Below are positions 2,627-53,299 of a DNA stretch of 64,000 nt, piece by piece. Position numbers and translations under genes: made by a program. The stretch comes from Nitrospirota bacterium. Its GTDB lineage: Bacteria; Nitrospirota; UBA9217. Position 1 is the stretch's first letter. Every line of letters starts with the position of its first letter. The DNA is taken from the NCBI GenBank assembly GCA_963751455.1, contig CAVVUN010000008.1, positions 160,001 to 224,000 of the forward strand, written 5' to 3'. The notes below the pieces were generated by a model. It did not search any database. It was not told where the DNA came from and worked only from the letters and a program-made list of their open reading frames with translations.

Positions 2627-3291
2627 TCATTTGGACGGCTCGTAGCACAGCAGCACATTCCCGTTGCCGAACGTTCGCGTCTTTGTCAGCTTCAAAACAA
2701 GCTTGTTTTTAAGGCCCTCAAACATTGTCCTTCCCTTGCCGATGGCAACCGGATTTACCAGGATCTGGTACTCGTCGATCAGTCCCTGCGCTAATTGTGA
2801 AACGATGGTGCCGCTTCCCAGTAACGTTAAGTCTTTTCCGGACTGCTGTTTCATCTTCCGTACTTCGGCAACCACATCGTCCGTCACGAGCCGGGTATTG
2901 GTCCAATCAACTTTATCCAGTGTCCTGGAAAAGACAACCTTCGGCGATTTAGTGGAGCCCCCTCCGGCAGGAGCCGGAGGCTCCCCTGAACAACGCGACC
3001 TCCCAGCGCGGACTACGGCGCATTACCCCCGGCAAGAGCCGGGGATTGCAAGTCGCGGCATTCATTCCTTCGGCCACAATGGGATCATTCTTGATCGCTT
3101 CCGGGGTGGGCCAGTAGCTTGTCCATAAGCTCATATGTTACGCGCCCGAAGAGGAGCGTATTCCCGGAATTGGCTTTCTCTTCTGCATATTTATTGAACT
3201 CCGCATCGACGGTATGCCAGGAGATGTCGCCGCCCGGGCCTGCAAAGTAACCGTCAAGCGTCACCAGGTTGAAAACAACCAGTTTTCGCAT
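2627..3291 (-). pseudogene. Dihydrofolate reductase-like (RibD C-terminal) protein, disrupted by a +1 frameshift (~3123) and a 109-bp element
   Basis: MRKLVVFNLVTLDGYFAGP..LLFGRVTYELM / SYWPTPEA..EGMN | KSPKVVFSRTL..GSGTIV..LIDEYQILVNPV. Confidence 0.9.
2951..3059 (-). mobile_element. Twin-hairpin non-autonomous element, copy 1 (IS200/IS605-derived PATE-like)
   Basis: Near-identical to 23529-23635 and 53193-53299; sits between codons AAT and AAA of the DHFR-like gene, 3' of TGAAT on the minus strand; no TSD. Confidence 0.85.
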
Positions 3292-3393
3292 TTTTTCGCC
3301 TTTAACCAATTTTGGGAACATGTTCTCACTGTGCCTTTTCTCCCGTCGTACGCTGTTTACAGGTGACAAACATGCATGTCGACTCAACGGATT

Positions 3394-3678
3394 CTAAGAG
3401 CGATTAGTCTTCGCCAGTCCGAATGCCAGGCGTTCCTCGAAATTCCTGATGAACTGGGCGACCTGGATCCCGAAATAAATGCATTTTATGCCATTCATGC
3501 ATTCATCCGCATCCGCCTTTTCGAGGTGGGTAGTCAGCACTTCTTTCCCTCGCCTGAATTCGACGATATAGCTGTTTTTTTCTTCGTCAAAACGAAGGCC
3601 TACAGAAAGGCCATGTTCGCCGATCTCGGGATACATTTCGATAATTTTTTCTTTCAGGGCAACAATCGTATATGCCAT
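3394..3678 (-). CDS. Small hypothetical protein
   Basis: 94-aa ORF with GGAGG RBS and plausible protein composition. Confidence 0.7.
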   Translation of the reverse strand: MAYTIVALKEKIIEMYPEIGEHGLSVGLRFDEEKNSYIVEFRRGKEVLTTHLEKADADECMNGIKCIYFGIQVAQFIRNFEERLAFGLAKTNRS

Positions 3679-4025
3679 CGCCGCCTCCTTCCTCGTTTGA
3701 GGAGTGGTTTATCTTTCAATCGACGTGAAGCGTTATTCTCTCTGTCTAATAAGAGATAGATACCTACTCTTACTTTAGTATAGCACCTGGTATGAACAAA
3801 GGAATGGAGTAGGGTAAGGTCTTTATGGAAACTCGGGGACTTCCTCATCTGATGGAGCGAAATCGTCATGATGTTGAGGTGATGTTGAGGCATTGAGCAA
3901 TTTATTAACTCAAACGGGAAGGTTTAGGGTATCATGATTACCGGAATATTTATGCAGCGAATGCAATAAACGAATGCCATGGATCGTCATACTAGCAGAG
4001 GCATGAGAAACGGAATGACTTCGTT

Positions 4026-4574
4026 ATGAACGAAAAAGCTCGAAGCCGCGATATTTCGCAGTTTTTCAGCGACAAATATCGAAAACTGGTTAAGTACTTT
4101 AACGCGAATTATTCCGATCTCTCGGAAATGGAGGCCGAGGATATTGTCAGCGACCTCATGGCCGATCTCTTCGAGAAGGCGGATTTTATTGCTCATGTCG
4201 AAAACCTGTCTGCCTACATCTACCGTTCCATGCAAAACAGGGCCAAGGATTATCTAAGAAGAAGGAAAAGGACGGTTTCGTATGAAGCGGCCACGTACGA
4301 TGAAGAGAACAGCCTGGACACGGAAACTGTGCCGGAACCGCGTTACGATATGGCAGGCGAGATCGAAGCCGCGGAGATTCGCGGCCGGCTTATAGAGGCC
4401 CTGGACCAGATCGAACCGGACCAGCGCACTGTCTGGATCGCCACGGAACTCGACGGTTATTCGTTTCGTGAGCTGGCAGAAGAATGGGGTGTGCCTATCG
4501 GCACCCTTTTGGCGCGAAAACACCGGGCCAATGCGGCCCTGCAAAAAAAGCTGAAGGATTTGAAAAACAGGTGA
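4026..4574 (+). CDS. ECF-family RNA polymerase sigma factor
   Basis: AEDIVSD, YIYRSMQNRAKD region 2; GYSFRELAEEWGVPIGTLLARKHRA region 4 HTH. Confidence 0.9.
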   Translation: MNEKARSRDISQFFSDKYRKLVKYFNANYSDLSEMEAEDIVSDLMADLFEKADFIAHVENLSAYIYRSMQNRAKDYLRRRKRTVSYEAATYDEENSLDTETVPEPRYDMAGEIEAAEIRGRLIEALDQIEPDQRTVWIATELDGYSFRELAEEWGVPIGTLLARKHRANAALQKKLKDLKNR

Positions 4575-4587
4575 AGGAGGGGAAAAC

Positions 4588-5028
4588 ATGATGACAAAAG
4601 AACGGAGTTCCAATCAATGCAACCGGCCGGGACCGTGGATTATCGGCCGGGTCGTCCGGGGGATCGTCATAGCTTTGGCATTCTCCCTGGTGTTCGCGAT
4701 TTTCGTCCGGCTGCTGTGGAACTGGCTGATGCCCGGGATATTCGGCGTTCATGAAATCAATTTCGGACAGGCCTTTGGGCTGCTGATCCTGGCGCACCTG
4801 TTCTTCGGAGCGAGAGGCATGCACCGTATGCATCCTGAATTTACTCGCAGGTGGCACGGGCACCACAATTGGGGATGGGGGCCCTGTTCGAAGGAGAATG
4901 CGGCAAACGGGGAAATCAAGGACTGGCGCCACTATGACGCATGGTGGCAGGCTGAAGGACGGGAAGCATTCAAGAAATATATAGACGGTCATGAACAGGG
5001 CAAGGAACGCAAGGACCCCACGGGGTAA
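4588..5028 (+). CDS. Membrane protein co-transcribed with the ECF sigma
   Basis: Two TM helices with LLWNWLMP.IFG..INFGQAFGLLIL motif; GGAGG RBS. Confidence 0.75.
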   Translation: MMTKERSSNQCNRPGPWIIGRVVRGIVIALAFSLVFAIFVRLLWNWLMPGIFGVHEINFGQAFGLLILAHLFFGARGMHRMHPEFTRRWHGHHNWGWGPCSKENAANGEIKDWRHYDAWWQAEGREAFKKYIDGHEQGKERKDPTG

Positions 5029-5249
5029 ATGGTTTTAGTTTTGAATTTCGTAGCCTGGACAAGCTGAAACGAATATGCCACAAAGACTCAAGGGCACAAA
5101 GAACTCAAAGTTAACTAGCCGCAACGATGCACAAAAAGCACAAGTAAATTTTTTCCTTGCGTATCTTGCGCGTCCTTGCGGCAAAAATTCTTTTCATTTT
5201 GGATAGACATTCAGGATGTTGGCGTAAAATTACTTTAAAGGAGGCAATC

Positions 5250-5681
5250 ATGTTAAGAAGCAGGACCGCATTACTGGTTGTAATGACCGCCCTTTTGGCG
5301 CTGGTCAGCGCAGGATGTTGTCACAGGGCGCCTGAAAAACGGGCAGAGCACGTCGTAAAGCACCTCGTGGGAACGCTGAACCTGGATGCAGCACAAACGG
5401 AAAAGCTCGAGAAGATCAAGGACGAATTTCTGGCGAGGCACGCGGGCATCAGCAATGCAAGGGAGGAATCCGTAAAAGAAGCCCGGGACATAATGGTGAG
5501 CGCGGAGATCGACCAGGCAAAGTTAAACGCGTTGGTTGAGAAAAAACAGGCAGAGGCGAACAACCTGATCCGGTTCGTTTCCGCCAAATTTACCGAGATT
5601 CACGACATGCTTACTCCGGACCAGAGAACCAAGCTGGCAGCGGAGATGGAAAAACATGCAAGCCGGGCGCATCACTGGTAA
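5250..5681 (+). CDS. Spy/CpxP-family periplasmic chaperone (lipoprotein)
   Basis: Lipobox SAGC; LNLDAAQ and MLTPDQR LTxxQ motifs; GGAGG RBS. Confidence 0.8.
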   Translation: MLRSRTALLVVMTALLALVSAGCCHRAPEKRAEHVVKHLVGTLNLDAAQTEKLEKIKDEFLARHAGISNAREESVKEARDIMVSAEIDQAKLNALVEKKQAEANNLIRFVSAKFTEIHDMLTPDQRTKLAAEMEKHASRAHHW

Positions 5682-5700
5682 TTTTGACGGAAATAAAGTA

Positions 5701-5830
5701 GATAGGAAATCGCAGAAGTCGGATTTGCCACTGAGCACACAGAGAGCACGGAGGTAACGCTTTAAAACCTGAAATATTTTCTCTGAGTCCTCGGTGATCT
5801 CTGTGGCAAAAAACTTTTTACGAATCTATC
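5701..5830. mobile_element. MITE family A (GAT..GTAAAAAGTC ends), degenerate copy with CACAGAG core
   Basis: Highly similar to 34774-34906; ends ACTTTTTACGAATCTATC. Confidence 0.7.
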
Positions 5831-5866
5831 CTTGAAGAAGAGCAGATTTCAGGGAGAGGTAATAGG

Positions 5867-5975
5867 TCAGGCATCACTCGTCGCAACATTCAAACGAGCT
5901 GCATCAATATGCACATCTCGGAAGCGGGAAACGGCCCTGTAGTCGTCTTAATTCACGGTTTTCCTGAATTGTCGA
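5867..5975 (+). pseudogene. N-terminal fragment of epoxide hydrolase/alpha-beta hydrolase
   Basis: Reads GITRRNIQTSCINMHISEAGNGPVVVLIHGFPELS and then loses homology. Confidence 0.7.
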
Positions 5976-6075
5976 CACGCCGCAGGGGCCTATGCAAGTG
6001 AAATTCGTCGAAAAAAATAATTTCGGCGTTTTTATAGAGTAACTTTAATGTTTTGACTTCCCTTTCTTCTGCGTT

Positions 6076-6636
6076 TCACAACATCCCCGGCCGGAACAGT
6101 GATTTTCGGCTGATGATCTTGCCGGAGACCACGAACACGCCGGCGCCCGTATAGTGCAGCGTCTCGGGATGCTTCGGCGAAGCGGCCACATTCGCCTTGA
6201 CCACTTCGAAGATGAAGAAGTTGTATTTGTCGACAAGCGCGTCGTCGTGCAGGCGACACTCGAAGCTCGCATGACACTCGCGGATCAGCGGCGCCTCCAC
6301 CTTGTGCGCCTTGCCGGGCGTCAGTCCGAATTTCTCGAACTTGTCGATTTCAGCACCCGAGGTGTTGCCGATCTTGATGACAATGTCGGTCAGCGCCGTG
6401 GTCGGCAGGTTGATGACGCATTCGCCGCTGTTGCGGATCATCTTGAAGCTGTGATTGCTTTCGGCGATTACGCAGCCCACGAGCGACGGCGTGAACTCCA
6501 TCACGGTGTGCCAGCCCATTGTCATGATGTTCGTCTTGCCTTTCCATTTCGACGAAACCAGAACAATCGGACCGGGCTCCAGATATTGCCGCACCTGGCT
6601 CACCGGGAAATCCCTCTTCTCCGGTTTTTTTCTCAT
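6076..6636 (-). CDS. Flavin reductase family (flavoredoxin-like) protein
   Basis: EPGPIVLVSS, NIMTMGWH, ECVINLP, GNTSG..IDKF, APLIRECHASFEC. Confidence 0.9.
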   Translation of the reverse strand: MRKKPEKRDFPVSQVRQYLEPGPIVLVSSKWKGKTNIMTMGWHTVMEFTPSLVGCVIAESNHSFKMIRNSGECVINLPTTALTDIVIKIGNTSGAEIDKFEKFGLTPGKAHKVEAPLIRECHASFECRLHDDALVDKYNFFIFEVVKANVAASPKHPETLHYTGAGVFVVSGKIISRKSLFRPGML

Positions 6637-6934
6637 AGGCGATTCCTTTCCGGCGAATGATCTTCTGTACCTATTAAACATATCATCTCCAATTTTGAAA
6701 TCAAAATGCTTTTACCCGGGGTCTGAGTCCCGGCTGCTTCTCCCACTCCATTATTTTTCTTTTTGACCGTCTCTCCATTCTCATCCGGCATAACACCGCA
6801 TAGGTGTGCGACCAAAGATGCAGATTAACACGGACTGCGGATTTGACTCGGCCTCAATACCTTCTATATTTAAACGAGACACATATAAAATACTCCTGAC
6901 TCCTGACTACTACTGATTACTGAGGTTAAACCAA

Positions 6935-8215
6935 ATGGATGACTTTGCTAAAACAAAGGATATCGGCGGCATCTTCCGGTTTGACAGACTGCTCGCAATT
7001 GAGAAAAGGCTGATCCGCAGACAGATGGCTCTTTTAGGCGATCCTCCCGTTACCATTGCCATAGGAAACGGCAACACGGTCTGCTCAGCAAACGGGAAAT
7101 CAGTCGGCACGGTCATTATCCGCGATCGAAAAACTTTGCTGCGATTTGCCGTCCATCCTGAACTTCATTTCGGGGACGCTTACTGCGAGGGGAAAATAGA
7201 GGTAGACGGAAACCTGGTTGACGTTCTGAAAGCCGCTTACAGGTGCATGGCGAAGTCACCCAAAGAAGGCCTGGTCAAGATCTCGAGAACAAAGATCACC
7301 AATCGGCCTCGCTTGAACACGCTGAGCGGATCCAGGGAAAACATCCACGAGCATTACGATATCGGCAACGATTTTTACCGGCTCTGGCTTGATGACAGAA
7401 TGCAGTATACGTGCGCTTATTTCCCAACGCCCTCGGCTACCCTGGAAGAGGCACAGATCGCCAAGATGGACCATGTGTGCAAAAAGCTGACGCTCAAGCC
7501 CGGGGAAACGGTTGTGGAAGCAGGGTGCGGCTGGGGGACCCTCGCCTTGCACATGGCAAAAAATTACGGCGTCAAGGTAAAGGCCTGCAATATTTCCCAT
7601 GAGCAGGTCGTGAGCGCTCATGAACAGGCAAAGGCTGAAGGGCTGGACGACCGCGTGGAGTTTATCGAGGACGATTACCGGAACATCAAGGGCACCTTCG
7701 ACGTTTTCGTGTCTATCGGGATGCTGGAACACGTGGGCGCCCGATATTACCGGGAGCTGGGCAAGGTGATAGCACTCTCGTTAAAGGAAAACGGCAGAGG
7801 GCTTATACATTCGATTGGACGAAACAAGGCGGAACCCATGAACCCCTGGCTGGAACGGCGCATATTCCCAGGCTCCTATTCGCCGACCCTGCGGGAGATG
7901 ATGGAGGTATTCGAGCCTTCCGGGTTTTCCATCCTTGATGTTGAAAACCTCCGCCTCCATTACGCGAAAACCCTGGAGCACTGGATGGAGAAGTTTGAGC
8001 AGGCCAAGGACCGGATAGGGACGATGTTTGATGAGAAGTTCATACGGTCGTGGAGGCTCTATCTCGCCGGATCGATTGCGTCCTTTGCCGTGGGAGATCT
8101 TCAGCTTTTTCAGGTGCTGTTTGCCCGACCGGACAAGAACGACCTGCCCTGGACAAGGGCCCACTTGTATGCGGAGACGAGCCCGATAAGCCGGAAGAAA
8201 AAATATTCCATTTAA
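6935..8215 (+). CDS. Cyclopropane-fatty-acyl-phospholipid synthase family SAM methyltransferase
   Basis: HYDIGNDFY.LWLD..MQYTCAYF, EAGCGWG, SIGMLEHVG, HYAKTL..W. Confidence 0.92.
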   Translation: MDDFAKTKDIGGIFRFDRLLAIEKRLIRRQMALLGDPPVTIAIGNGNTVCSANGKSVGTVIIRDRKTLLRFAVHPELHFGDAYCEGKIEVDGNLVDVLKAAYRCMAKSPKEGLVKISRTKITNRPRLNTLSGSRENIHEHYDIGNDFYRLWLDDRMQYTCAYFPTPSATLEEAQIAKMDHVCKKLTLKPGETVVEAGCGWGTLALHMAKNYGVKVKACNISHEQVVSAHEQAKAEGLDDRVEFIEDDYRNIKGTFDVFVSIGMLEHVGARYYRELGKVIALSLKENGRGLIHSIGRNKAEPMNPWLERRIFPGSYSPTLREMMEVFEPSGFSILDVENLRLHYAKTLEHWMEKFEQAKDRIGTMFDEKFIRSWRLYLAGSIASFAVGDLQLFQVLFARPDKNDLPWTRAHLYAETSPISRKKKYSI

Positions 8216-8308
8216 AGCAAAGCTAGATCAATTTTCGCGCAACGCCCTGCACTTGCGTAACCCGCTGGGTGCGAGAGACGCAAAGGGAAAGCAAAATCTA
8301 TATTTTTT

Positions 8309-8474
8309 GTAACCATTCAGCTTCTTTTCAGAACGGCATTAAGACAAATCTGAGAAAAAACCCTTCTATCCGCAGATTTCGCAGATTTACGCAGATTTTA
8401 ACCGGAATTCTGGTTTTGTTTTTATCTGCGAAATCTGCGTAATCTGCGGATAAAAAAATGACCTGAATAGTTAC
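8309..8474. mobile_element. MITE family B (IS66-like GTAA ends), copy 1, nested in a GCAAAG/CTTTGC palindromic repeat
   Basis: TIR GTAACCATTCAG / CTGAATAGTTAC; flanks TATTTTTT / TATTTTTC; inverted copy at 38779-38946. Confidence 0.85.
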
Positions 8475-8822
8475 TATTTTTCAGTAATTCTTTCTTTGCG
8501 ACTTTGCGGCTTTGCGCGAGACGGTTTTGATTTTGAGTCACGCATGAAAACCCGATTATCACACAAAGCCACTAAGCCGCAAAGAAGGATTGAATTATAT
8601 TTTGAATCATGAGGTTCTTCGTGTCTTCGCCTGTGGCCAGTGTTTACGAGGCCCTTGATTCCCGTCTCGCTTTATCAGCGAGATGGTACAACAATGAGTC
8701 TAAGAATTGCCAAGCGCGAATACAGGCTATGCCTTCGTGTGAGACCGCTTTTGATTTTGACTTCATGCTTTATCGGTCGAGGCTTTTAGAAGAATTTCAT
8801 TTTTAGTAATTAAAGGAGGGAC

Positions 8823-9944
8823 ATGGAATCCTGTGATGTTCTCATCGTGGGCGGCGGCCCTGCCGGCTCCACTCTTGCCTGGAGGTTGCGGGAATACGGC
8901 CTGGACGTATTGGTCCTCGATAAAAGCACATTCCCGCGGGACAAGGTATGCGCAGGCTGGATCACGCCGCAGACTACAGAGCTCCTGCATCTGGACAAGG
9001 TTGACTATTCCCGCGAGCGGGTGCTGCAGAACATCACCGGGTTCCGGACGGGCATGCTCGGGGGGGCCGAAGTCGTTACCCGGTATGGAAGCACGGTAAG
9101 CTACGGCATCCGGCGTTCTGAATTTGATCACTACCTCCTGCGGCGCAGCAGGGCTCGTTTGCGGCTCGGGGAGCCCGTCAAGACCATGGAGCGGAAAAAG
9201 AACGACTGGATCATAAATGGTAACGTGCGGACCAGCCTGGTGATCGGCGCGGGAGGCCATTTCTGCCCTGTTTCAAGATTCATGAGAGGAAATAGGGCGC
9301 GAAGAGAACCCGCGATCCTCGCCCAGGAAGTCGAATTTGAATTGAACGGGTCCCAACAGCGCGAGTGCCGCGTGGCGGCAGATACTCCCGAGCTCTATTT
9401 TTGCGAAGACCTGAAGGGGTACGGATGGTGTGTACGAAAAGAGAATTTCCTCAACATCGGGCTCGGCCGTGAAGACAACAGGAACGTCGCGGAGCAGGTG
9501 AGGTCGTTCGTTGGTTATCTTAAAGAGAGAAAGAGGATCCCGCTGAATACCCCCGCAGACTTCAGGGGCCATGCCTATATGCTGTACCACGGCCAGTCTC
9601 AAGCCCTTGTTGATGACGGCGTGATGCTCATCGGAGATGCAGCCGGACTTGCCTATCCAAAAAGCGGGGAGGGCATCAGGCCGGCTGTGGAATCCGCCTT
9701 GACAGCCGCGGAAGTTATCCTTTCAGCTGCCGGAGATTATAAGCGCAACAGGCTTTTACGATATTCGGCCCTGTTGGCGCAGAGATTCGGTAAGGGCAAT
9801 CGCGCTTCCGACCTCTTGCCCGAGCCAGTGAAACGTCTCGTGAGCCGCAGGCTCATGCAAAGCCGATGGTTTTCGAGGCATGTCTTGCTCGACCAATGGT
9901 TTCTGCGCTCAACCGACGTCGCAAATAGCAGATTTAACCACTGA
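8823..9944 (+). CDS. FAD-dependent oxidoreductase, geranylgeranyl reductase family
   Basis: DVLIVGGGPAGS, FPRDKVCAG, LIGDAAG..PKSGEGIRPA. Confidence 0.9.
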   Translation: MESCDVLIVGGGPAGSTLAWRLREYGLDVLVLDKSTFPRDKVCAGWITPQTTELLHLDKVDYSRERVLQNITGFRTGMLGGAEVVTRYGSTVSYGIRRSEFDHYLLRRSRARLRLGEPVKTMERKKNDWIINGNVRTSLVIGAGGHFCPVSRFMRGNRARREPAILAQEVEFELNGSQQRECRVAADTPELYFCEDLKGYGWCVRKENFLNIGLGREDNRNVAEQVRSFVGYLKERKRIPLNTPADFRGHAYMLYHGQSQALVDDGVMLIGDAAGLAYPKSGEGIRPAVESALTAAEVILSAAGDYKRNRLLRYSALLAQRFGKGNRASDLLPEPVKRLVSRRLMQSRWFSRHVLLDQWFLRSTDVANSRFNH

Positions 9945-10188
9945 GCCACGGAGTTCACAATCGTTAACCGTCTTGAAATGAGCCCTCTCGATCATACACC
10001 CCTCGTCTTTATTTCTGATGTCTCAAAGCGGGGCACATGACGATTCGCCGCTATTGCAGCGATCCCGGCATTAATTCCAAACAGAAAAAGCAAAACCGCC
10101 CAGAAACAATTTGTTCAAAAAAAACTAATTTTATTATTGATTAGCTTCTTTCATACCTCTTGCTATAATCGAAAAAAGGGGGTGTGAA

Positions 10189-11151
10189 ATGGAGAAGGTC
10201 TGGGAAATAAAAAATCCTGAAGAGTATTTGAAACCAAGGGAAAGGAAGCAGCCGGCAAGAGAAACCACGACCCGGCTTGACCTCAAAAACCCGGCCCGGG
10301 CATATACCCTTTCACTTTTTTTCTGGGGAGTCGGCCAGAATTATAACGATGAAAGAGGAAAAGGCCTTCTGTTTCAGTTAGCGATGATCGGCTTGTTCGT
10401 CTCGATTGTTCTTTCCGTTGTGTTCGGCGATTCTGTTCTTGATTTTTTACGTTCTCATCAAATCGGCGCCTCTCAATCCTTCCTTGTTGCCGAACTCCTG
10501 TTTCTCTGTCTGCTGATTTTCTGGCTCTCCATCGCCGGCGATGCATACCACTCGGCTGCAAAAACCAGAAGAACCCGGTTTTCAGGAATACAGAATCATA
10601 TATATCCCTGTATCTGCTCCCTGCTCGTTCCGGGATGGGGCCAGTTTCTGAACGGGCAGCCGATCAAAGGCAGCATTTTTTCGGGTGTTTCCGTTTTCGG
10701 GATCTTTGCAATCGTCTCGATCCCCGCCACCCTGCTGATCTGGAGCCGGCTCGACACTTCCGACACCCGGCTTATAGTTGAAACAGTCTTCGCGATTACC
10801 GTGCTGTATGCGCCGATCGTGCCGTTCATATGGCTCTTCAGCGGCTACGACGCCCTGAAAGTAAGTCTCGATGACCTCAAGAAGGAGTCGTTGTGGGAGA
10901 GGATCAAGTCCGCAAACAACCGCCGCCGGACCCAGGGGTGGATTGACGGCGTATTTCCCAGTTTCAAATCGACCATATTGCTCATACTATTCCTGGTCGG
11001 GCTTTCGATAGTGATCTCCCGCACTTTGCCCCTCGACTTCTATACAGATCTGCTGGCCTCCGGCGGCGCATATTTACGCAATCAGGGAATGATCATCGTA
11101 CCGGACATCATCGACAGGCTCATATTGGTACTGCCGGTAACGGGAAACTGA
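10189..11151 (+). CDS. Hypothetical multi-pass membrane protein with duplicated SLxxxGxGQ motifs
   Basis: LSLFFWGVGQ.YN and CSLLVPGWGQFLNG repeats; several TM segments. Confidence 0.75.
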   Translation: MEKVWEIKNPEEYLKPRERKQPARETTTRLDLKNPARAYTLSLFFWGVGQNYNDERGKGLLFQLAMIGLFVSIVLSVVFGDSVLDFLRSHQIGASQSFLVAELLFLCLLIFWLSIAGDAYHSAAKTRRTRFSGIQNHIYPCICSLLVPGWGQFLNGQPIKGSIFSGVSVFGIFAIVSIPATLLIWSRLDTSDTRLIVETVFAITVLYAPIVPFIWLFSGYDALKVSLDDLKKESLWERIKSANNRRRTQGWIDGVFPSFKSTILLILFLVGLSIVISRTLPLDFYTDLLASGGAYLRNQGMIIVPDIIDRLILVLPVTGN

Positions 11152-11171
11152 TTACGCCCAGGTGCCTGAAA

Positions 11172-11187
11172 TGTGATTTGCATCACA
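11172..11187 (+). promoter_or_regulatory. CRP/FNR-family binding site upstream of ftsH
   Basis: Exact TGTGA-N6-TCACA; TATTGT -10 at 11209-11214 gives class II (-41.5) spacing. Confidence 0.7.
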
Positions 11188-11276
11188 GTAAATCATTTCC
11201 TCCCTTCGTATTGTATCAACAGTATGATTTCCGCAATTCGCCTATCGCGTAGCTGAAATCCCTTTCCGGAGCAATA

Positions 11277-22561: not shown

Positions 22562-23422
22562 TCATTTTTTCTTTCGGCTTTTTTTCGGGGACAATGACTT
22601 CTTTACAGCCGGAGGCAAAAAGTTCTCTCCGGTTATGACTTTTTTCCCCGTCTTTGCTTCAAGTTCCCGCCTTGCTTTCTTGGCGATTCCGCCGCCTGTT
22701 TTGCCGGCAACCTTGTTTTCTTTCATTCCGACGGCCTTCATGGTCTCCGCTATTTGTCGGGTGGACAGCTCGGCAAGGGCCGTAAAAATCAGTTCGGCTT
22801 CGCTCATGTGGTCTCTAAGGTTTTGTGTCTTCAGCCCCTTCATCGCCTTGTGCTTTTTTACGGACACATCCGCCCATTCTCGGTGGATGATGTTCGTCAA
22901 AATGGCGTATTCCTCTTCCTCTTTAATATCATGATCTTTCCAGTAATCCGTCAGCTTATTGCGGGTCTCCTGCCCCATCATCCGCTGCTGAATCCACTTT
23001 TCGCTTCTTCCATGCTGTTGCCAATATTCCCGCGCCCGGTCAAGAGACCGAGCCGGGTCCGCCATGTCCTGCATCCGTTCATAGCCGACCTTCGCCAGCC
23101 ATAGTTTGATCGGTTCCGCCTTGGGGCTGGGTACGGACTGGATCAGGCGGAGAAGCGTTTCAGGATCGGCAACATCAGTAATGTATTGCTTCCCGTCGGC
23201 AGCCTTCAATTTCAGTCGGTGACAATTTGTCACCGACTGACTTCCTTCCTTATTCAGCCGTTCTTTCAGTTTATTCCAGTATTTCCGAGCTGTCTGATAA
23301 TCCGGCTGCTGTATCAGAGCCTGAATAATATCGACAACAGAGAAATACCACGTTTCTGTCTCCTCATCATAAATTCTGCGGATACTATAATTTTCAAATA
23401 CGGCAAGCGATTTATCAATCAT
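22562..23422 (-). CDS. Bro-N domain protein (antirepressor-like)
   Basis: WYFSVVD, RKYWNKLK.RL, TDVAD.E.LLRLIQS.PSPKAEP.KLWLA, NLRDHM. Confidence 0.88.
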   Translation of the reverse strand: MIDKSLAVFENYSIRRIYDEETETWYFSVVDIIQALIQQPDYQTARKYWNKLKERLNKEGSQSVTNCHRLKLKAADGKQYITDVADPETLLRLIQSVPSPKAEPIKLWLAKVGYERMQDMADPARSLDRAREYWQQHGRSEKWIQQRMMGQETRNKLTDYWKDHDIKEEEEYAILTNIIHREWADVSVKKHKAMKGLKTQNLRDHMSEAELIFTALAELSTRQIAETMKAVGMKENKVAGKTGGGIAKKARRELEAKTGKKVITGENFLPPAVKKSLSPKKSRKKK

Positions 23423-23477
23423 CTTTCGGTCCTTTGTCCCTTACCTAAGTCCCTTCCTTAACCTGGCCCCATGGTTT

Positions 23478-23682
23478 GGCCATCAATTTCAACTGGTGAC
23501 AATTTGTCACCGATTGATTTCCTTCCTTAGTGGCGCCCTCTCCGGCAGGAGCCGGAGGCTCCCTTTAATAACGCGACCTCCCGCGGACTACGGCGCATTA
23601 CCCCCGGCAGGAGCCGGGGGATTGCAAGTCGCGGGATTCAGCCGTTCCTTTAGCCTGTCCCAGTACTTCCGCGCAGTCTGAT
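23478..23682 (-). pseudogene. Fragment of a second Bro-N gene, interrupted by the twin-hairpin element
   Basis: With the element removed it reads YQTARKYWDRLKERLN|KEGNQSVTNCHQLKLMA, matching the intact gene. Confidence 0.85.
23529..23635 (-). mobile_element. Twin-hairpin non-autonomous element, copy 2
   Basis: Inserted at CGGCTGAAT|AAGGAAGG; the empty site is present in the intact gene at ~23244-23260. Confidence 0.88.
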
Positions 23683-23683
23683 A

Positions 23684-23745
23684 GGGTAGAGCAGCACGAA
23701 ACTCAGCAAAGGCCGTTGGGTTACGCTACGCGTAACCCAACCTAC
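23684..23745. repeat. GTAG-family REP doublet, 5'-truncated
   Basis: GGGTAGAGC..GAAAC..AAAGGC..GTTGGGTTACGC..AACCCAACCTACGGGCT. Confidence 0.7.
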
Positions 23746-24052: not shown

Positions 24053-24218
24053 CCGCGAGCTGCCTGCGGTTTCAGTCGGTGACAATTTGTAACCGACTGA
24101 CTTCCTTCTTTTAAAGAAAAGTAACCTCTCCCGCCGTCTGACAACAAATGAGATTCGACCCTACACGTTATTATTAATCGGGTTGAGAACGGTGTCCCAC
24201 CGAAGTTCCGGATCTAAA

Positions 24219-40541: not shown

Positions 40542-40569
40542 GCCCTACCTTAACAGATAAATAGTACCC

Positions 40570-45377: not shown

Positions 45378-45679
45378 AATCATTTATCCTTGACTGTCCT
45401 CCATTCTGAATTTCATCTTTTTTAAATGACCGGATTAAAGTTTTTTTCTTTTCCGAAAATAATGGAAAATTCAGCTTTTTGCTCACTCCGGTCATGTAGG
45501 GTGACTATTGTGAGTGCTTCTCGAAGAAGTGACGCAAGCGTTGGTTGGACCTGCTATTACTTTCTCACTATTCTCTTACCTAATCCCGACAAGCCCTTTC
45601 GGCCATACTACAAAACTCTTCTTTTGTCGTGTTAACTAACAGCTTGTTTCTTATAAATAACCGTTAGGTTTATAATTTG

Positions 45680-45778
45680 ATTAGAACAATCCGATTGCAC
45701 CGGAGGGTCATCCTCGTACGGGACGGCGTTGAAGCGATCGAACATCTCTTCTACGACCACGGAGAGTTTCTAGTTTAA
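45680..45778 (+). pseudogene. Receiver-domain fragment
   Basis: RLHRRVILVRDGVEAIEHLF resembles the Rcp1-like receiver V..DG.EA motif. Confidence 0.5.
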
Positions 45779-45828
45779 GGTTTCAAATACAACAGTTTCA
45801 ATGAAAGAATTTCACGCGGAGGCGCGAA

Positions 45829-47367
45829 GTGAGTAGAGATAGAATGCAATGGAGTCGAATAAAGCTTGGATGGACACGATATTTTCTGCCCATAAGCACG
45901 GTTGCGCTGGGAGTGGTATTACGGTCCATATTAATTCCAAGCTTGCGGGAGACGCCCTACGCAGTGTTCTATCCGGCCGTAATAATCTCTGCGCTGTATG
46001 GCGGGTTTTTGCCGGGACTTGCAGCTTTGGTGCTTTCAGGAATAGCCGCTTCCGTCTGGTTCAGCCCTGGGGCATTGGTGCAATTTTTAATACCAGGCAC
46101 CACAGCCGGCATGCTGGTCTTTCTGTCGGGCGGCCTTATTATCGTGGCTATTTGTTCACAGCTTCGGAAGGCAAACGAGCGCATAGGCGCAGAGGCCCGA
46201 CGGCTGCGTGAAAGCGAACGGGCGCTGGCTGCCGAGATCACAGAACGCAAGCGCGCCGAGGAGGAGTTAAGGCGGCTCAGTTACCGGAACAAGTTGATCC
46301 TGGAATCGGCGGGTGAAGGCATCTGGGGAGTTGACACGCAGGGTATTGTCATCTTTATAAATGAGATTGGAGCTTCCAGCCTCGGCTATGACGTAAACGA
46401 CCTGGTCGGAAAACCAAGTCACGCGACGTGGCACCATAGCAGGCCGGACGGCACCCCCTACCCTTCGGACGAATGTCCTATCTATGCGGCATATCGAGAT
46501 GGGGTTAACCATACCGGCGAAGAAACGTTCTGGAGAGCAGACGGGACCGGTTTTCCCGTAGACTTTACGAGCAGACCAATTGTTGAGGAAGGCAGGATAA
46601 CAGGTGCGGTTGTCACGTTCAGGGACATTACCGGACGCAAGAGGGCTGAACAGGAGCGGGAGAGATTGATTGGGGAACTTCAGCGTTCCAACACGGAACT
46701 TGAGCAGTTCGCGTATGTAGCTTCCCATGACCTGCAGGAGCCGCTCCGCATGGTAGGCAGTTATACCACTTTGTTACAAAAGAGATATAAGGAACACCTG
46801 GATGAAAAGGCGCACGAGTATATTAATTTTGCTGTTGACGGCGCTGAGAGAATGCAAAAACTCATTGAGGGTCTTCTCGCCTATTCCCGTATAACCCGGA
46901 AGGGCGCTCATTTCAACCAGGTAGACCTTAATAAGGTTTTTTCGATGGCGGTTTCAAATCTCTCAGTGACGATCCAGGAAAACAATGCCGCGATCACGAA
47001 AGATCCGCTTCCGACAATACCAGGCGACGAGATTCAGCTCGTGCAGCTGTTCCAGAACCTGACCGGCAATGGCGTAAAGCATAGAAAGCCGGAGAGCGCT
47101 CCCCGTGTGCACATATCAACGAGGAGAGACGGACAAAAGTATGTATTTTCCGTAAAAGACAACGGGATTGGAATCGAGCCGGACTATTACGAAAGAATAT
47201 TTCAGATCTTTCAGCGCCTCCATACCCGTCATGAATATTCAGGAACGGGCATCGGGCTTGCGTTATGTAAACGCATTGTGGAACGGCACCACGGACAGAT
47301 CTGGGTCGAATCGGTTCCCGGCGAAGGCTCGACGTTCATGTTTACGGTTCCGATTGAAGGGAGATAA
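45829..47367 (+). CDS. Membrane PAS sensor histidine kinase
   Basis: TM region, PAS, FAYVASHDLQEPLR, DNGIGI, GTGIGLA. Confidence 0.93.
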   Translation: MSRDRMQWSRIKLGWTRYFLPISTVALGVVLRSILIPSLRETPYAVFYPAVIISALYGGFLPGLAALVLSGIAASVWFSPGALVQFLIPGTTAGMLVFLSGGLIIVAICSQLRKANERIGAEARRLRESERALAAEITERKRAEEELRRLSYRNKLILESAGEGIWGVDTQGIVIFINEIGASSLGYDVNDLVGKPSHATWHHSRPDGTPYPSDECPIYAAYRDGVNHTGEETFWRADGTGFPVDFTSRPIVEEGRITGAVVTFRDITGRKRAEQERERLIGELQRSNTELEQFAYVASHDLQEPLRMVGSYTTLLQKRYKEHLDEKAHEYINFAVDGAERMQKLIEGLLAYSRITRKGAHFNQVDLNKVFSMAVSNLSVTIQENNAAITKDPLPTIPGDEIQLVQLFQNLTGNGVKHRKPESAPRVHISTRRDGQKYVFSVKDNGIGIEPDYYERIFQIFQRLHTRHEYSGTGIGLALCKRIVERHHGQIWVESVPGEGSTFMFTVPIEGR

Positions 47368-47368
47368 A

Positions 47369-47831
47369 ATGGAAACTTGCAAAACAAAGCCGATAGAAAT
47401 CCTTCTGGTAGAAGACAATCCCGGACGATGTTGGACTGGTCCAGGAGGCCCTGATAGAAGGAAAAGTCTGTAACAATTTACATGTCGCTTATGATGGAGT
47501 CGAGGCGATGAAATTTCTGAGGGGGCAGGGCGATCATGCGAATGCCCCGTGCCCGGACCTTGTCCTGCTCGACTTGAATCTTCCCCGGAAGAACGGCAGG
47601 GAAGTGCTTCAGGAAGTCAAGTCGGATCCTTATTTGAAGAGCATTCCCGTGGTTGTTCTCACAAGCTCAACGGAAGACGAGGACATTTGCAGGTCTTATG
47701 CAGAGCATGCCAATTGCTATGTCAGCAAGCCGGTCGGCTTCGAATCATTCCTCAAGGTGGTAAGGTCCATTGAGGATTTCTGGTTTTCGGTTGTCAAGCT
47801 GCCCTGCAGGGCGCTTCCAGAGGCGAGGTAA
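47369..47831 (+). pseudogene. Rcp1-like response regulator with +1 frameshift at ~47424
   Basis: [19 protein letters not shown] / [31 protein letters not shown]; extra base in CCC GG[A]C GAT. Confidence 0.85.
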
Positions 47832-47833
47832 CA

Positions 47834-50800
47834 ATGAGTAACTCGATTCGGAATATACTGCTGATCGAGGACAATATTGCAGACGTTGAGCTTATCCGGG
47901 AGATGCTGAACGAAGTTGAGGGCAGCTATGCCCTTACAGAGGCAGGCCGTCTTTCCTCAGGTTTGAAGATTCTGAAAGAGGATGCATTTGATATTATTCT
48001 TCTTGACCTGGAACTGCCTGACAGCAGCGGGATCGATACATTCCTGACGATTCTGGACCAGGCGTCCGACGTGCCTGTAATTATTCTGACCGTGTTCGCT
48101 GATGAGAAGCTTGCAGCGGAAGCGATATCACAGGGTGGTCAGGACTACCTGATCAAAGGCCGGATCGACAGCATCCTGCTGGAAAGATCGATTCGCTATG
48201 CTATCGACCGCAAGAGGTCAGAGGCAAAGCTCAGACGAATGAGCCGCCGAACCGAACTCATCCTGGAGACCGCCGGAGAAGGAATCCTGGGTCTGGACAC
48301 TGAAGGCACGATCATATTCCTCAACAATGCCGCTGCCGCCATGCTCGGGTATACGACTGATGAGGTGATCGGGAAGAACTGTCTGATTATGTTTCATCAC
48401 TCAACTCTTGGCGGCATTCCCTATCCTGCTGAAAAATGTCCGGTCGATGCTGCATTCCGGCACGACTCCGACCAGTACGGTGAAGAGGTGTTTTGGAGAA
48501 AGGACGGATCCAGCTTTCCCGTTTATTTTACCAGCAGACCTCTTTACGAAGAAAATAAAAGAATAGGAGCGGTGGTCACATTTAGAGACATCTCCGAACG
48601 CAAGCGGGCTGAGGAGGCATTGCGCGAAAGTGAGGAGCGATTCCGCCAGATGGCGGATGCAATGCCGCAACTGGTCTGGACCGCCGACCACGACGGAAGA
48701 GTTGACTATTACAACAAGCGTGTAAATGAATTCGAAGGATTTGAGCTGAAGCCGGACGGCTCATGGCATTGGCAACCAGTGCTGCATCCCGATGATCTTG
48801 AACCGACGAACCGCGTTTGGCAGCACGCTCTCGAAACGGGCTCAATCTACGAGATAGAGCATCGCGTCCGCAAGCGTGACGGCGCCTATCACTGGTATCT
48901 GTCACGAGGAGAGCCGGTTCGGGACAATGCCGGCAGGATCATCAAATGGTACGGAACTGCAACCAATATCAACGCCTTCAAACTCGCACAAGAAGCTCTT
49001 CGGGAGAGCGAGGAACGGTTCAGGACGGCATTTGAAAATGCGGCCACCGGCAGGGTCCTGACCGGGACCGACGGACGCTTTATCAGAACCAACAAGTCTT
49101 TCTGCGAAATGCTGGGTTACTCTGAAGAGGAAATTGCTTCTCTGGATTTCGCTTCCCTCACCCATCCGGACGACCTCGAAATCAGCCGTGAAACAGTGCG
49201 CGCCCTGTTGACGGGAGAAAGAGAATTACAGCGGTTCGAAAAGCGGTATCTTCACAAAGACGGCCACACGGTATGGACGCTGGTCAGCACCTTTCTGTTC
49301 CGCGATCAGATGAATCAGCCGCTTTATTTTATTACGGATATTCTTGATATTACCGAGCGCAAGAAGGTTGAAGAGCAGCTGAAAAGAGCAAAAGAGCTGA
49401 GCGACGCACTCAACCGTATTAATACAGTCATCCATTCCACTCTCGATCTGGATGCCATCATGCAAAGAGTCGTTGTTGAAGCAGCTCAGGCGATACATGT
49501 CGAGGCTTCATCTATCGGGCTGTTTGAGGGCCCGGCTTTCGTAATGCGATATATGCACAATATGCCGCAGGACCTCATGGGTCAGCGACTTACCTCAGAT
49601 AGCGTCCGGGGAGTATACTGCGCTGCATTGGCAAAGGACGTGGTTGCCTCCAATGAGGTATCCCAGGATAACCGGGTCAATGTCTGGTTCTGGCGCAAAT
49701 ACGGCATCAAGTCGCTTATGATCGCTCCTCTGATTCTCCGTGAACAGGTCATAGGCGCTTTGACCTTCTATTCTATATCAAAGGCACTGGTATTTACAGA
49801 TATACATATTGACTTCGCCAGAAAGCTCACTACTTCGCTTTCTCTTGCACTCGAAAACAGCCGTCTGTTTAACGACCGAAAAAAAATGGAAGAGGAAATG
49901 AGGCAGATGGCTCACCATGATCCTCTGACGGGCCTGCCGAACAGGCGTCTCTTCATGGACATAATGAAAGTCGAGCTTAATCAAGCCAATCGACACAGAA
50001 AAAAAATGGCAATTCTCTTTCTGGACCTTGACCGTTTCAAGGAGGTTAACGATACCCTCGGTCATGAGGCAGGCGATCTTATCTTGAAGGAAGCTGCTTC
50101 ACGGCTTGGAACAGCTGTGAGAAAATCCGACACCATCGCGCGCATCGGAGGCGATGAATTCAATGTCATCCTGGCCGACATCGTTCGTCCGGAAGACATC
50201 GCGGATATCGCCCGAAAAATCGTTGAAGCTTTCAGAAAGCCTTACCGGATTATGGGACACGATCTGCATAGTACTACCAGCATCGGCATCAGCGTCTATC
50301 CTGATGACAGCGAAGAAACAGATACGCTCCTGAAATATGCCGATATTGCAATGTATAATGCAAAGGAGAATGGAAGAAACAAGTATCAGTTCTATAATGT
50401 TTCAATCAACTTCAGGTCTCTTGAACGAATGCGGCTGGAAAACATGCTGCACCGCAGCCTTGAATTGGGCGAAATGCAGGTTTTCTATCAGCCGCTCGTG
50501 AATATAAGAACGCAGCGTATCGTATGCGCTGAAACGCTTGCTCGCTGGCAACATCCTTACAAGGGGCTTCTTGAGGCGAAAGAATTTATTCCCGCAGCCG
50601 AAGAAACCGGTTTCATAAGCGCAATAGATGAGTGGACGTTAAAAAAGGCCTGCAGACAGGTCAGGGCATGGCGGAATTCGGGACTTTCATCGGTGTGTGT
50701 CACCGTAAATCTTTCAGCGCGGCAATTCCAGAATCCGCATCTGGTCGAGAGGGTCACCTCGATTCTGCATGAAACGGGCACGCCGCCGAGCTGTCTCGAT

Positions 50801-51190
50801 ATTGAAATTACGGAGAGTACGGCAATGAGCAACGTTGAGGACACCGCGGTGCGTCTTAAACAGCTGGCCGAAATGGGTATTCATATCTCCATAGACGATT
50901 TCGGCACAGGTTACTCGTCTCTGAGCCGTCTTAAGCGGCTTCCGATCAAGCGCCTTAAAATCGACCAGTCCTTTATCCGGGATATTTCCGGTGATCCTGA
51001 TGACAAAACGATCGTCCGAGCCGTAACAGCAATGGCGCATAATATGAATATTATTGTAGTCGCAGAAGGCGTGGAAACTGAGGAGCAGCTTGAATTCCTC
51101 CGAAAGACGGGATGCGATGAAATGCAGGGCTTTCTATTTAGCAAGCCGTTACCGGCGGAAAAATTCAGGGAGCTGATGAGTAAAAGATAA
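47834..51190 (+). CDS. REC-PAS(x3)-GAF-GGDEF-EAL c-di-GMP enzyme
   Basis: [15 protein letters not shown] motifs, GGDEF, ETL (EAL variant), [10 protein letters not shown]. Confidence 0.95.
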
Positions 51191-51774
51191 CACCTCGAAT
51201 CAAGAATAACCTACTGAACTTCTGTCCTCTCGACATTTTTACAAATACAGAAATGCTCAGCCCGTTTTATCGCTTGTATTTGAAAAACAAGTTGTCAGGA
51301 TAGGGGGCCATCCATTTCGGCGGAAATCACGGTACCGGCATCGTCTACGGCTGACAAGTCGGGCGGCGTTTTTTTAACAGGTACGTTAACCATGAGTCCC
51401 AACACGTAGGACGAGTCCAGCAGGCTGGACTTCGCAGCTCATTCGCCGCTGTTCGACAGTTCGTCCGGCTTGAACGGGGTCGCTTTGCTTTCTTTTGTCC
51501 CGCAACCAGTGCTTCCGCACTTTTTTTTATTTTTGAGTTCCTCGAGAATGGCATCGGTAAAATTCTTAAGCATTATATATTGCACTCTCCTTTAATACTT
51601 ATTTCGTAATTCGTAGTATACCCCACATTTATCGGCAGATGTTTAAGTTTATTAATACATCTAACAAACATAATCTCTTTATTTCAGAAAAGCACTCTAA
51701 GGCGCATATAAAGAGCCTAAAAGAGAAGGGTTAGGATGCTTTTCGGCTTTTACTGGTCTTCTATAGGTGGAAAA

Positions 51775-52324
51775 AGTAGATACCCACGGGCTTACGCCCG
51801 TGGCACTTATTTTTAAAACCCAAACTTCAACTGCCCTTTATCAACCTTTTCTTGAAACTCCACGTACCTCTTGATTACCTCTTCGTTTATTCCTACCGTT
51901 GAAGAAAAGAACCCATGGGACCAAAACTCATTTCTCCAATATACTCTCTTGATCCAATCGAAATGTTTTCTTATTTCCCTACTCGTATTTGCCTTGATCT
52001 TTCCGACGATCGCCGACACTGCATATTTTGGCGGAATGATGATTATCAGATGTACATGATCCTCCTGAATGCTGTACCGCTCAATTTCTACTTCCGGATG
52101 ATACGTATCAATATCGTGCAATCGCTTCTCTACAAACTGCTTTAACTCCCCTTTTAAAATCCGTTTCCGATATTTGGGAATCCATACTATGTGATACTGG
52201 TGATGATAGGCACCATGAGCACTATGTCTAATTTCCATGCCGCCATTGTATCACATTAAAACATTACCAGCCTACGGCTGGTACGCTTTCATCCACGGGC
52301 TTACGCCCGTGGTCTTCAGCGCGT
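51775..52324 (-). mobile_element. IS200-group insertion sequence (tnpA only)
   Basis: Identical subterminal hairpins CCACGGGC-TTAC-GCCCGTGG at 51784-51803 and 52293-52312 flanking tnpA; ends approximate. Confidence 0.88.
51813..52238 (-). CDS. tnpA: IS200/IS605 Y1 HUH transposase
   Basis: YHIVWIPKYR, DHVH (HUH), FWS.GFF..TVG, YVEFQ catalytic Tyr. Confidence 0.96.
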   Translation of the reverse strand: MEIRHSAHGAYHHQYHIVWIPKYRKRILKGELKQFVEKRLHDIDTYHPEVEIERYSIQEDHVHLIIIIPPKYAVSAIVGKIKANTSREIRKHFDWIKRVYWRNEFWSHGFFSSTVGINEEVIKRYVEFQEKVDKGQLKFGF

Positions 52325-52440
52325 TTTTTGATAAATCGCGCTTAAAATAAAAAATTGCAGAAAAACTATCGCGGGAAGGTATTAAGACTAACGGCGGGGA
52401 CGCCCCCTGTGGAATGAAAAAATTGAGCAGCGGTCCGGCA

Positions 52441-52482
52441 AAAATAAAAGAGGCACGGGATCCGATGCCCGATGCCTCATTT
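52441..52482 (-). terminator. Terminator after ytxH-like gene
   Basis: GAGGCA..CGGG/CCCG..TGCCTC stem followed by a T-run on the minus strand. Confidence 0.55.
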
Positions 52483-52523
52483 CCGGTATTTCCCGAATGT
52501 GTATTCAAAAACGCATAAAAAAG

Positions 52524-53069
52524 TCAGGCTGCTTGCTTCAGTCTTTCTTTTCCTTCCGCATATGCTTTCTCGGCAGCTTGTTTCGCACTCGCGGCGGCTT
52601 CCTGGTAGACGCCCTTGCCCTTCTCGATGGCTGACCCGATGCTGTCCGCAGCGCTCCCGGCCATACGCTTCATGTCCCCCCATAGCTCGCTCCCCGCCTT
52701 GGGTGCGAACAACAGTGCAATGCCCGCGCCGATGATGCCGCTCACGAGAAGCGGAACCACAAACGAAGCCTTTGTCGTCCCTTCTGCGCCTGCAAGCTCT
52801 TCAAGGCTTTCCGTTCCTTCAACATACGATTGTTTTGCCGCTTCGGATGCGGAGGCTGCGACAGCTGCGCCTTCTTCATAGAGTTCTTTGCCTGTATCCG
52901 CCGGCTCGTACAGTTTATCCCGGGTACGCGTTGCGAAACTCTTTAAATCGCTCCGCATCTCACTTCCCGATTTGGGCGTAAGCATGAGCGCAATACCCGC
53001 TCCGACTATGCTGCCCAGCAGAACCGGCACTACAATTGAACTTCTCTCGTTGATACCTTCCTCTTTCAT
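52524..53069 (-). CDS. YtxH-domain protein (two YtxH units)
   Basis: GAGIALMLTPKSGSEMR and GAGIALLFAPKAGSELW. Confidence 0.85.
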   Translation of the reverse strand: MKEEGINERSSIVVPVLLGSIVGAGIALMLTPKSGSEMRSDLKSFATRTRDKLYEPADTGKELYEEGAAVAASASEAAKQSYVEGTESLEELAGAEGTTKASFVVPLLVSGIIGAGIALLFAPKAGSELWGDMKRMAGSAADSIGSAIEKGKGVYQEAAASAKQAAEKAYAEGKERLKQAA

Positions 53070-53192
53070 ACGTTGCTCCTTTCTTGATGTTGAATTCTAG
53101 CAGGTTTGCCTTCTTGTCGGTCTTGTGGTTACAGATTATTTTGTCGGCACAGGCCGAGATTGATAAGTGAATTGATTCAGACCTGGGGAGTC

Positions 53193-53299
53193 AGTGGAAC
53201 CCCCTCCGGCAGGAGCCGGAGGCTCCCGTTAATAACGCGACCTCCCGCGGACTACGGCGCATTACCCCCGGCAGGAGCCGGGGGATTGCAAGTCGCGGG
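53193..53299 (-). mobile_element. Twin-hairpin non-autonomous element, copy 3 (intergenic)
   Basis: Near-identical to copies 1 and 2; again abuts ATTCA (TGAAT on the minus strand). Confidence 0.85.

Follow-up and report, generated by a model that had tools for sequence, protein, structure and literature searches.

Palindrome-associated transposable elements (PATEs) are non-coding repeats known from Haloquadratum walsbyi (PMC3119063) and Geobacillus stearothermophilus (bioRxiv 10.1101/2023.03.14.532601). They have similar palindromes near both termini, no terminal inverted repeats and no target duplication; they form homogeneous subfamilies, are often hit by other small elements, and live in hosts whose transposase genes are mostly broken. 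In this study we analyzed a twin-hairpin element that occurs three times in a 64,000-nucleotide stretch of a Nitrospirota genome (GenBank assembly GCA_963751455.1, contig CAVVUN010000008.1, positions 160,001 to 224,000; hereafter the window). The element, read on the minus strand, probably represents a family of gene-less mini-elements of the IS200/IS605 type, i. e. PATEs, whose target is set by a guide and which are likely moved as single-stranded DNA by an IS200 transposase (TnpA, of the single-tyrosine or Y1 HUH type) acting in trans. The genome of the window is called G000; other G labels denote genomes, C labels contigs and L labels loci.

In IS608, a guide 5' of the hairpin pairs cross-wise with the cleavage site (G1 with C2, G2 with C1), the third base of the site is an unpaired A, and two bases 3' of the hairpin form base triples (PMC3201880); a G4:C4 pair is stated in PMC3479197. 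With IS608 and ISDra2 our element shares a guide 5' of the hairpin foot, the cross-wise pairs, the A at C3, the triple bases, a preference at the +1 position and a strand bias (PMC3201880, PMC5934647, PMC5027513). By analogy, a mechanism of the IS608/ISDra2 class is therefore highly probable. The element differs in that it has neither tnpA nor tnpB, in its perfect 8-bp stems with a TCCT loop instead of bulged ones, in having T at +1, in its cuts (the left one predicted 16-19 nt before the hairpin foot, the right one 9 nt after it), and in an outer stem that pairs its first 7-9 bases.

Guide and target vary together

Copies were compared in a strict set of 163 de-duplicated copies from 308 sources. 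The filter required A at guide position 3 or T at position 4 and discards degenerate left hairpins; 20 of the 40 G000 copies were kept and window copy 1 was excluded. In this set the guide CAAT goes with the target TGAA in 43 of 47 copies, GAAT with TCAA in 38 of 54 and, by a G-T wobble, with TTAA in 8 more, GCAT with GCNA in 29 of 46, and AAAT with TTAA in 6 of 8. G1 and C2 form a Watson-Crick pair in 128/163 copies, or 145 when G-T is counted (2000 shuffles: mean 66.7, maximum 83), and G2 pairs with C1 in 147/163 (mean 90.8, maximum 110). These shuffle values overstate the case since the four guide classes are lineages and not independent events; what should be counted is at least three changes of guide, in each of which the target changed as predicted. 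Controls in the wrong register gave 14/163 (G1:C1) and 24/163 (G2:C2). If the guide register is moved by one base so that the cut follows the T, the CAAT and GCAT classes no longer fit, as judged by inspecting the class table.

Three guide classes coexist in G000 alone, each with its own target (CAAT with TGAA in 13/13 copies, GCAT with GCNA in 10/13; these class counts, like the duplication counts below, come from a looser filter that lets in about ten false starts). Thus the target is set by the element and not by the host. The first-pass annotation, made from the sequence of the window, had taken TGAAT as a fixed target. This holds for the CAAT-guide subfamily, whereas the other subfamilies use TCAA/TTAA, GCNA or TTAA; what a tabulation of flanks over further copies shows is a flank that varies with the guide.

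The bases predicted to form triples change as well. Of the copies with G at G1, 88/96 also have G as the second base past the left hairpin, versus 2/50 of the others, a co-variation which would fit the C-G*G triple of IS608. The two bases after this hairpin read AG in 44/50 copies of the GAAT class, as at the right end of IS608, and AT in 6/8 of the AAAT class, as at its left end. At the right end of the element the guide is GGAG in 144/146 copies, predicting CCNC, and the end is CCAC in 140/146, counts that are partly selected by the search pattern.

Ends, empty sites and outer stem

By analogy with the described transposases, cleavage would occur at TGAA^T and CCAC^T. The first base of the element is T in 161/163 copies, and the +1 base after CCAC is T in 45 of the 48 copies that were not selected for T, with positions +2 to +4 mixed. 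In IS608 the +1 preference is for C, in ISDra2 for a G that pairs with guide position 3 (PMC5934647), and in TnpA-REP an A at this guide position dictates that a T follows 3' (PMC3479197). The element itself has A at guide position 3 in 162/163 copies, within a filter that required A3 or T4. Pairing between position 3 and the +1 base need not be the cause of the +1 T, since IS200 ends with T at position 3 (L001, L002, L005, L445, L473) also precede T. Exceptions to the junction T (1/58 versus 3/48) lie within background divergence, and the counts alone do not place the cut.

Both empty sites that had been rebuilt for the window proved gapless when compared with paralogs. The junction of copy 1 matches a RibD_C/DHFR-like paralog on contig C3 (72% over 114 nt) and that of copy 2 the intact Bro-N gene (85% over 98 nt). 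Hence there is no target duplication beyond the junction T, which is not assignable to either side from sequence; in 151 copies, further duplications of 0, 1, 2 and 3 nt were counted 108, 27, 12 and 4 times, as by chance. The claim that the element inserts without target duplication is borne out, save that a one-base duplication of this T is formally possible. Palindromes lie near both termini and terminal inverted repeats are absent, which together with the missing duplication excludes a classical miniature inverted-repeat transposable element.

For the outer stem, the alignment supports TCCCGCG/CGCGGGA. Each of its pairs is kept in 79-86 of 87 copies, the first T is paired in 85/87, the ninth pair co-varies (49 versus a shuffled mean of 22 and maximum of 33), and RNAalifold selects the same stem. 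The stem originally proposed, CGCGAC/GTCGCG, was given up: its sixth pair is present in only 51/87 copies and lost in 36/87 with no compensation.

Replication-strand bias

The active strand of the element is the G>C strand in 32 of 40 G000 copies, and in 28/31 where the skew is at least 0.01, while 48-50% of target pentamers lie on this strand as a control. The G>C strand carries 1167 of the 1686 long open reading frames (ORFs) of G000, with 519 on the opposite strand, and it also bears dnaA, at the turn of the skew. It is therefore the leading-strand sequence, i. e. the lagging-strand template. The same bias was seen in 6/6 copies checked in the closed genome G048, one of which lies where the skew is near zero, and in 9/9 IS200 loci of G000. 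A bias for the lagging-strand template is a signature of the IS200/IS605 family (PMC5027513).

The copies in the window

All three copies were confirmed at the sites first reported, with two hairpins apiece and flanks unrelated to one another, and on the minus strand they fold more strongly than all 200 shuffles (z -6.1, -4.2 and -5.0 for copies 1 to 3). The boundaries stand as to position, but the guide rule shifts each copy by one base, to the values in Table 1. Removal of copy 1 rejoins the DHFR-like gene without a gap, as claimed, but the gene has a second lesion, an extra base relative to the paralog, which may be a sequencing error. Copy 2 shows the junction seen in the Bro-N gene, yet its host is a duplicated piece of about 100 bp and not the whole gene. 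Two partial duplicates of Bro-N lie directly upstream of the intact gene on the minus strand, at 23440-23700 and at about 24070-24111. Copy 3 is intergenic and starts 12 nt past an extended -10 box (promoter-like site 53339-53312), likely in the leader of a YtxH-like gene (52524-53069; Pfam label).

Table 1. Coordinates of the element copies, of the predicted functional parts of copy 3, and of the host genes in the window
Feature	Position	Strand	Remarks
Element copy 3	53194-53300	-	107 bp, CAAT-guide subfamily; from T1 at 53300 to CCAC at 53194
Copy 3, left cleavage/target tetranucleotide C_L, TGAA	53301-53304	-	host sequence; cut predicted 3' of TGAA by the rule of PMC3201880
Copy 3, left guide G_L, CAAT	53285-53288	-	pairs G1:C2, G2:C1 and G4:C4 with TGAA
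Copy 3, left hairpin IP_L	53265-53284	-	8-bp stem, TCCT loop; same as both hairpins of the L411 IS200
Copy 3, two bases 3' of IP_L	53263-53264	-	predicted base-triple partners of the guide; co-vary with guide class
Copy 3, outer stem, 3' strand CGCGGGA	53243-53249	-	partner is the first 7 bases of the element
Copy 3, right guide G_R, GGAG	53223-53226	-	predicts C_R as CCNC
Copy 3, right hairpin IP_R	53203-53222	-	8-bp stem, TCCT loop; direct repeat of IP_L
Copy 3, right cleavage site C_R, CCAC	53194-53197	-	next T (53193) is the target +1 base
Element copy 2	23530-23636	-	107 bp; target TGAA at 23640-23637; within duplicated fragment of the adjoining Bro-N gene
Intact Bro-N gene	22562-23422	-	displays the empty site of copy 2
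Element copy 1	2952-3060	-	109 bp; splits RibD_C/DHFR-like gene; target TGAA at 3064-3061
RibD_C/DHFR-like pseudogene	2620-3291 (ends approximate)	-	split by copy 1; further one-base frameshift near 3122

Family size and distribution

The expectation that the element would be abundant in its genome was correct. Profile searches found 40 paired left and right ends in G000 and 3 unpaired left ends; 16 copies measure 105-113 bp, 7 measure 43-45 bp, one 80 bp and 16 measure 140-210 bp, the last with other small hairpin repeats nested mid-element. BLAST with copy 3 gave 15 full-length matches. Three G000 copies are identical over 107/107 positions and two others over 108/108, and from the former identity movement appears to be recent. 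Some copies interrupt genes, and intragenic copies occur in either orientation. None carries tnpA: a Y1 transposase was found in 0 of 325 element-bearing loci, in agreement with the earlier assignment to ORF-less PATEs with IS200/IS605-type ends, which the guide/target code also upholds.

With at most two mismatches the right end was present in 22 of the 64 family genomes, including G000 (21/63 relatives; reversed control 0). In the class to which G402 belongs, 16 of 301 genomes had it, and G402 was the richest of these with 40 matches. Exact right ends in a GTDB scan gave 86 loci in records titled Nitrospirota, Smithella, Syntrophaceae and delta proteobacterium. The family thus spans two bacterial phyla. 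The viral contigs, plasmids and phages searched contained no element, and Rfam gave no match.

Several further insertions were noted in passing. A 43-bp mini (L354, G000:C8:238788-238831) interrupts a gene, which from its translated flanks we take to be a higB-like toxin-antitoxin gene. A worn copy (L355, G000:C2:448265-448372) interrupts a gene for what is presumably an integron-like integrase, judged by its translation, with the empty site visible in two paralogs. In the 140-210 bp copies of G000 (e. g. C3:324682-324875 and C6:203379-203571) the nested repeats include a GCCCTGCAC...GTGCAGGC unit and a CTCGCG...CGCGAG unit, both of which are present elsewhere in the genome too. In Syntrophales-type genomes, a second gene-less family (70-190 bp, ending in TCAT followed by T) has inserted recurrently at a TTAT site in the spacer of the element (L163, L167, L183, L187, L192, L203 and others); at L466 an entire L411-type IS200, described below, occupies this site.

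Core-deleted copies and copies within coding sequence

Single-hairpin copies make up 17 of the 163; they keep the guide and target of their own class, and their crossover points differ. Repeated deletion between the two hairpins would give such a pattern and is the likely origin of the 43-45-bp forms; with one guide that fails to match CCAC, these are predicted to be immobile. Core deletion to a terminal-only form is also a feature of the Haloquadratum PATEs, where this form has 52 bp (PMC3119063).

The only tilS gene of G000 (L353:570-2018; G000:C15:864069-865514) contains a 45-bp mini in frame, which makes a variable loop 15 residues longer than in most of 29 homologs. By inspection, 3 of the 4 differences between this mini and a GAAT-class mini are synonymous. 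A PIN-domain gene (L220) contains a 111-bp copy, in frame and in antisense orientation. A general coding role was rejected: there are 35 open frames across 183 copies, and Pfam, applied to the 20 longer ones, places the element within a domain or between domains of a single real protein only in tilS and the PIN-domain gene. Translation of a palindromic repeat in frame recalls the Rickettsia palindromic elements (PMC10969869), yet with two clear cases it is rare here, and the insert in tilS is a core-deleted Y1-type element. In some homologs (L369, L387, L392) this TilS loop contains insertions unrelated to the mini, which may be further palindromic repeats that are translated.

A candidate helper transposase

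An IS200 with matching hairpins was found at G060:C84 (L411). It is about 545 bp long and carries only tnpA, whose 142-aa product matches NF033573 with 111.5 bits and has the IS608 and ISDra2 transposases as its PDB matches. Both hairpins are identical to IP_L of the element in 20/20 positions; the sequence outside the hairpin differs, and the outer stem is of the same design. The guide AAAA of L411 goes with TTAT, and those of its relatives (GAAA, GAAG) with TCAT and TCAC. They follow the same pairing rule with guides unlike those of the element. An HUH transposon with the same ends, for which a search had been recommended, was thus found as far as the hairpins are concerned, but none of the autonomous elements found has the exact ends.

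In G000 this IS is represented on contig C11 by a 5'-truncated remnant, 89% identical to L411 (L482, C11:40223-40611), and by a core-deleted mini (L483, G000:C11:26360-26407). A copy of the element is inserted antisense in the remnant, between the two codons of the HUH histidines. G402 has nine copies of the L411 TnpA family, one without a stop and one inside an element copy, and 583 metagenome proteins match the family at E<=1e-40. As a separate observation, seven of eight full-length L411-type tnpA copies in G402 (L461-L471) have the same early TAG stop, and it appears that the stop-bearing gene has itself spread in trans.

Other parents were sought and set aside. G000 has 33 PF01797 matches, 7 of the IS200 type with other hairpins and the remainder mostly RAYT-like; these and the matches in relatives have other ends. 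The unpaired left ends of G000 lead to no tnpA, and a metagenome scan for the exact right end showed no Y1 transposase among the matches listed (at least 120 loci). The suggestion of a TnpB/IscB-bearing parent with TGAA(T) as its transposon-adjacent motif was not supported, and the element does not fit the TnpB- or IscB-bearing types (IS605, IS1341, ISC): TnpB (PF07282) has no match in G000 (the positive control matched in 8/14 genomes), and the IS with matching hairpins has tnpA only.

By analogy with IS608/ISDra2, the probable course of events is that a dimer of TnpA would bind both hairpins on single-stranded DNA at the replication fork, cut at NNNA^T and CCAC^T with resealing of the donor site, and release a circle of about 107 nt with the junction CCAC|TCCC, which would then insert 3' of a tetranucleotide that matches the guide and is followed by T. 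Whether the enzyme is the 142-aa IS200 TnpA family of L411 we regard as an evenly balanced question.

Other Y1 loci of G000 are recorded here in their own right. The window contains a complete 555-bp tnpA-only IS200 (51776-52330, minus strand; ORF 51813-52238) with GTAA-loop hairpins, target TTAT and end CTAC. In its second copy, on C14, HVY replaces HVH; a different element splits the third copy, on C9. A different IS200, with TAAC at both cut sites (L004/L018, G000:C1:505331-506108), lies inside a RAYT-like Y1 gene. G000 has more than 20 RAYT-like genes, several of them near-identical, which is many for that class.

Points against and other explanations

Several findings weigh against the proposal of a PATE moved in trans by a hairpin-matched IS200 TnpA. 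The shared ancestry within guide classes, the selection of right ends by the search pattern and the +1 T that IS200 ends with T at guide position 3 also show have been mentioned above, and co-orientation with genes may contribute in part to the strand bias. In the 325 element-bearing loci no autonomous element with the exact ends was found, and the 86 loci of the GTDB right-end scan gave no Y1 match. In the 64 family genomes the right end and an IS200 TnpA each occur in 22, and both in just 4. Four relatives have an L411-like TnpA (G009, G043, G060, G066) and none of them has a right-end match; in the class of G402 it is one of three such genomes. The closed genome G048 has 6 copies of the element and no PF01797 match. 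In G000 itself the candidate helper is truncated and broken, despite copies of the element that look recent. Transient helpers together with collapsed assemblies can explain the poor co-occurrence, and the same puzzle, movement with transposase genes mostly broken, was noted for Haloquadratum (PMC3119063).

It is somewhat doubtful, but a serious alternative, that an element of the same kind is served by another resident IS200 TnpA or by an unsampled parent that ends in CCAC. Candidates are the intact 141-aa TnpA of the window (51813-52238; 39% identical to that of L411) and a TnpA on C9 (L003) with hairpins that share the CCCCCGGC and CCACCGGC stems. Several of the 7 IS200-type matches of G000 are intact while its L411-type copy is dead, yet identical recent copies of the element exist; one GstTnpA excised several ISGst families (bioRxiv 10.1101/2023.03.14.532601); and with at least 120 metagenome loci listed, a parent may have been missed. 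However, the loops of these IS differ (GTAA, TAC, TCT/TTC versus TCCT), and in IS608 loop bases matter for TnpA binding (PMC3201880). Moreover, G043 and G050, with 14-15 IS200 copies, have no element.

Improbable, in our view, is a repeat like REP (repetitive extragenic palindrome) or REPIN, spread without any IS200 by a host-kept RAYT/TnpA-REP (a Y1 protein of about 300 aa) or another host HUH enzyme. REP/REPIN hairpin repeats are likewise non-coding and rely on a Y1 HUH enzyme, with C^T at the right end (PMC3333891, PMC3479197, PMC8266576), a chemistry which the right end of our element fits; 18 of the 22 element-positive family genomes lack an IS200 TnpA, and most element-rich genomes without one have RAYT-like Y1 proteins. 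But the hairpins of the element are direct and not inverted repeats, there is no GTAG foot, and a four-base specificity with the guides CAAT, GAAT, GCAT, AAAT and GGAG uses G1 and G2, which TnpA-REP sequesters (PMC3479197). In a scan of 56 Y1 loci no element end lay within 1.5 kb of a RAYT-like locus, i. e. no flanking RAYT gene was found; the sole match was copy 3, about 1 kb from the IS200 of the window. G048, as mentioned, has copies of the element and no Y1 match at all. Less probable still is that the repeat functions as a structured RNA or resembles a terminator, and that recombination or an RNA-bridged recombinase of the IS110 type has spread it, in which case the T would be a one-base core or duplication. 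The strong folding, the conserved outer stem, the large number of intergenic copies and the T on either side, which the sequence by itself does not place, would suit it. The lack of an Rfam match and of a U-tract terminator and the copies inside genes in either orientation would not, nor would the cross-wise co-variation of guide, target and triple bases, which is specific to Y1 HUH chemistry.

Comparison with known PATEs and significance

Returning to the PATE interpretation, every testable feature of PATEs was found in the element, including palindromes related to those of an autonomous IS200 (L411). Its homogeneous subfamilies and its frequent interruption by other small elements also resemble those of the described PATEs. 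It differs from the described PATEs in its unrelated sequence and hosts, in having four guide classes with matching targets in one gene-less family, in the lack of an IS605/TnpB parent (the autonomous element with matching hairpins being a tnpA-only IS200 with other guides), and in a terminal-only copy that is in frame in tilS. In Rfam and in the openly accessible literature that was searched, no description of the family was found. We conclude that this is a new PATE family but not a new mechanism: the class is already in print, as is the co-variation of guide and target, which was reported together with the use of one TnpA for several end families for ISGst1-5 (bioRxiv 10.1101/2023.03.14.532601).

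A more far-reaching interpretation, which we offer tentatively, is that the element is a free-standing parasite lineage without a parent of its own. It would have crossed between Nitrospirota and Syntrophales-type deltaproteobacteria, undergone at least three natural retargetings through matched changes of guide, target and triple bases, hijacked the hairpin-matched IS200 TnpA that itself uses other guides, landed in the HUH codons of this enzyme, and, in the essential gene tilS, become protein once collapse to 45 bp had restored the frame. If this is true, one small TnpA serves six or more natural target codes, including that of a minimal 107-nt cargo carrier.

For those who annotate Nitrospirota and Syntrophales genomes, the exact ends given here define a repeat by which genes are split and, in one TilS, 15 residues were gained. 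The 163 copies are a natural record, triple positions and +1 base included, of the retargeting that has been engineered in IS608, and a named helper candidate bears on the question of how PATEs keep moving where tnpA is broken or missing.

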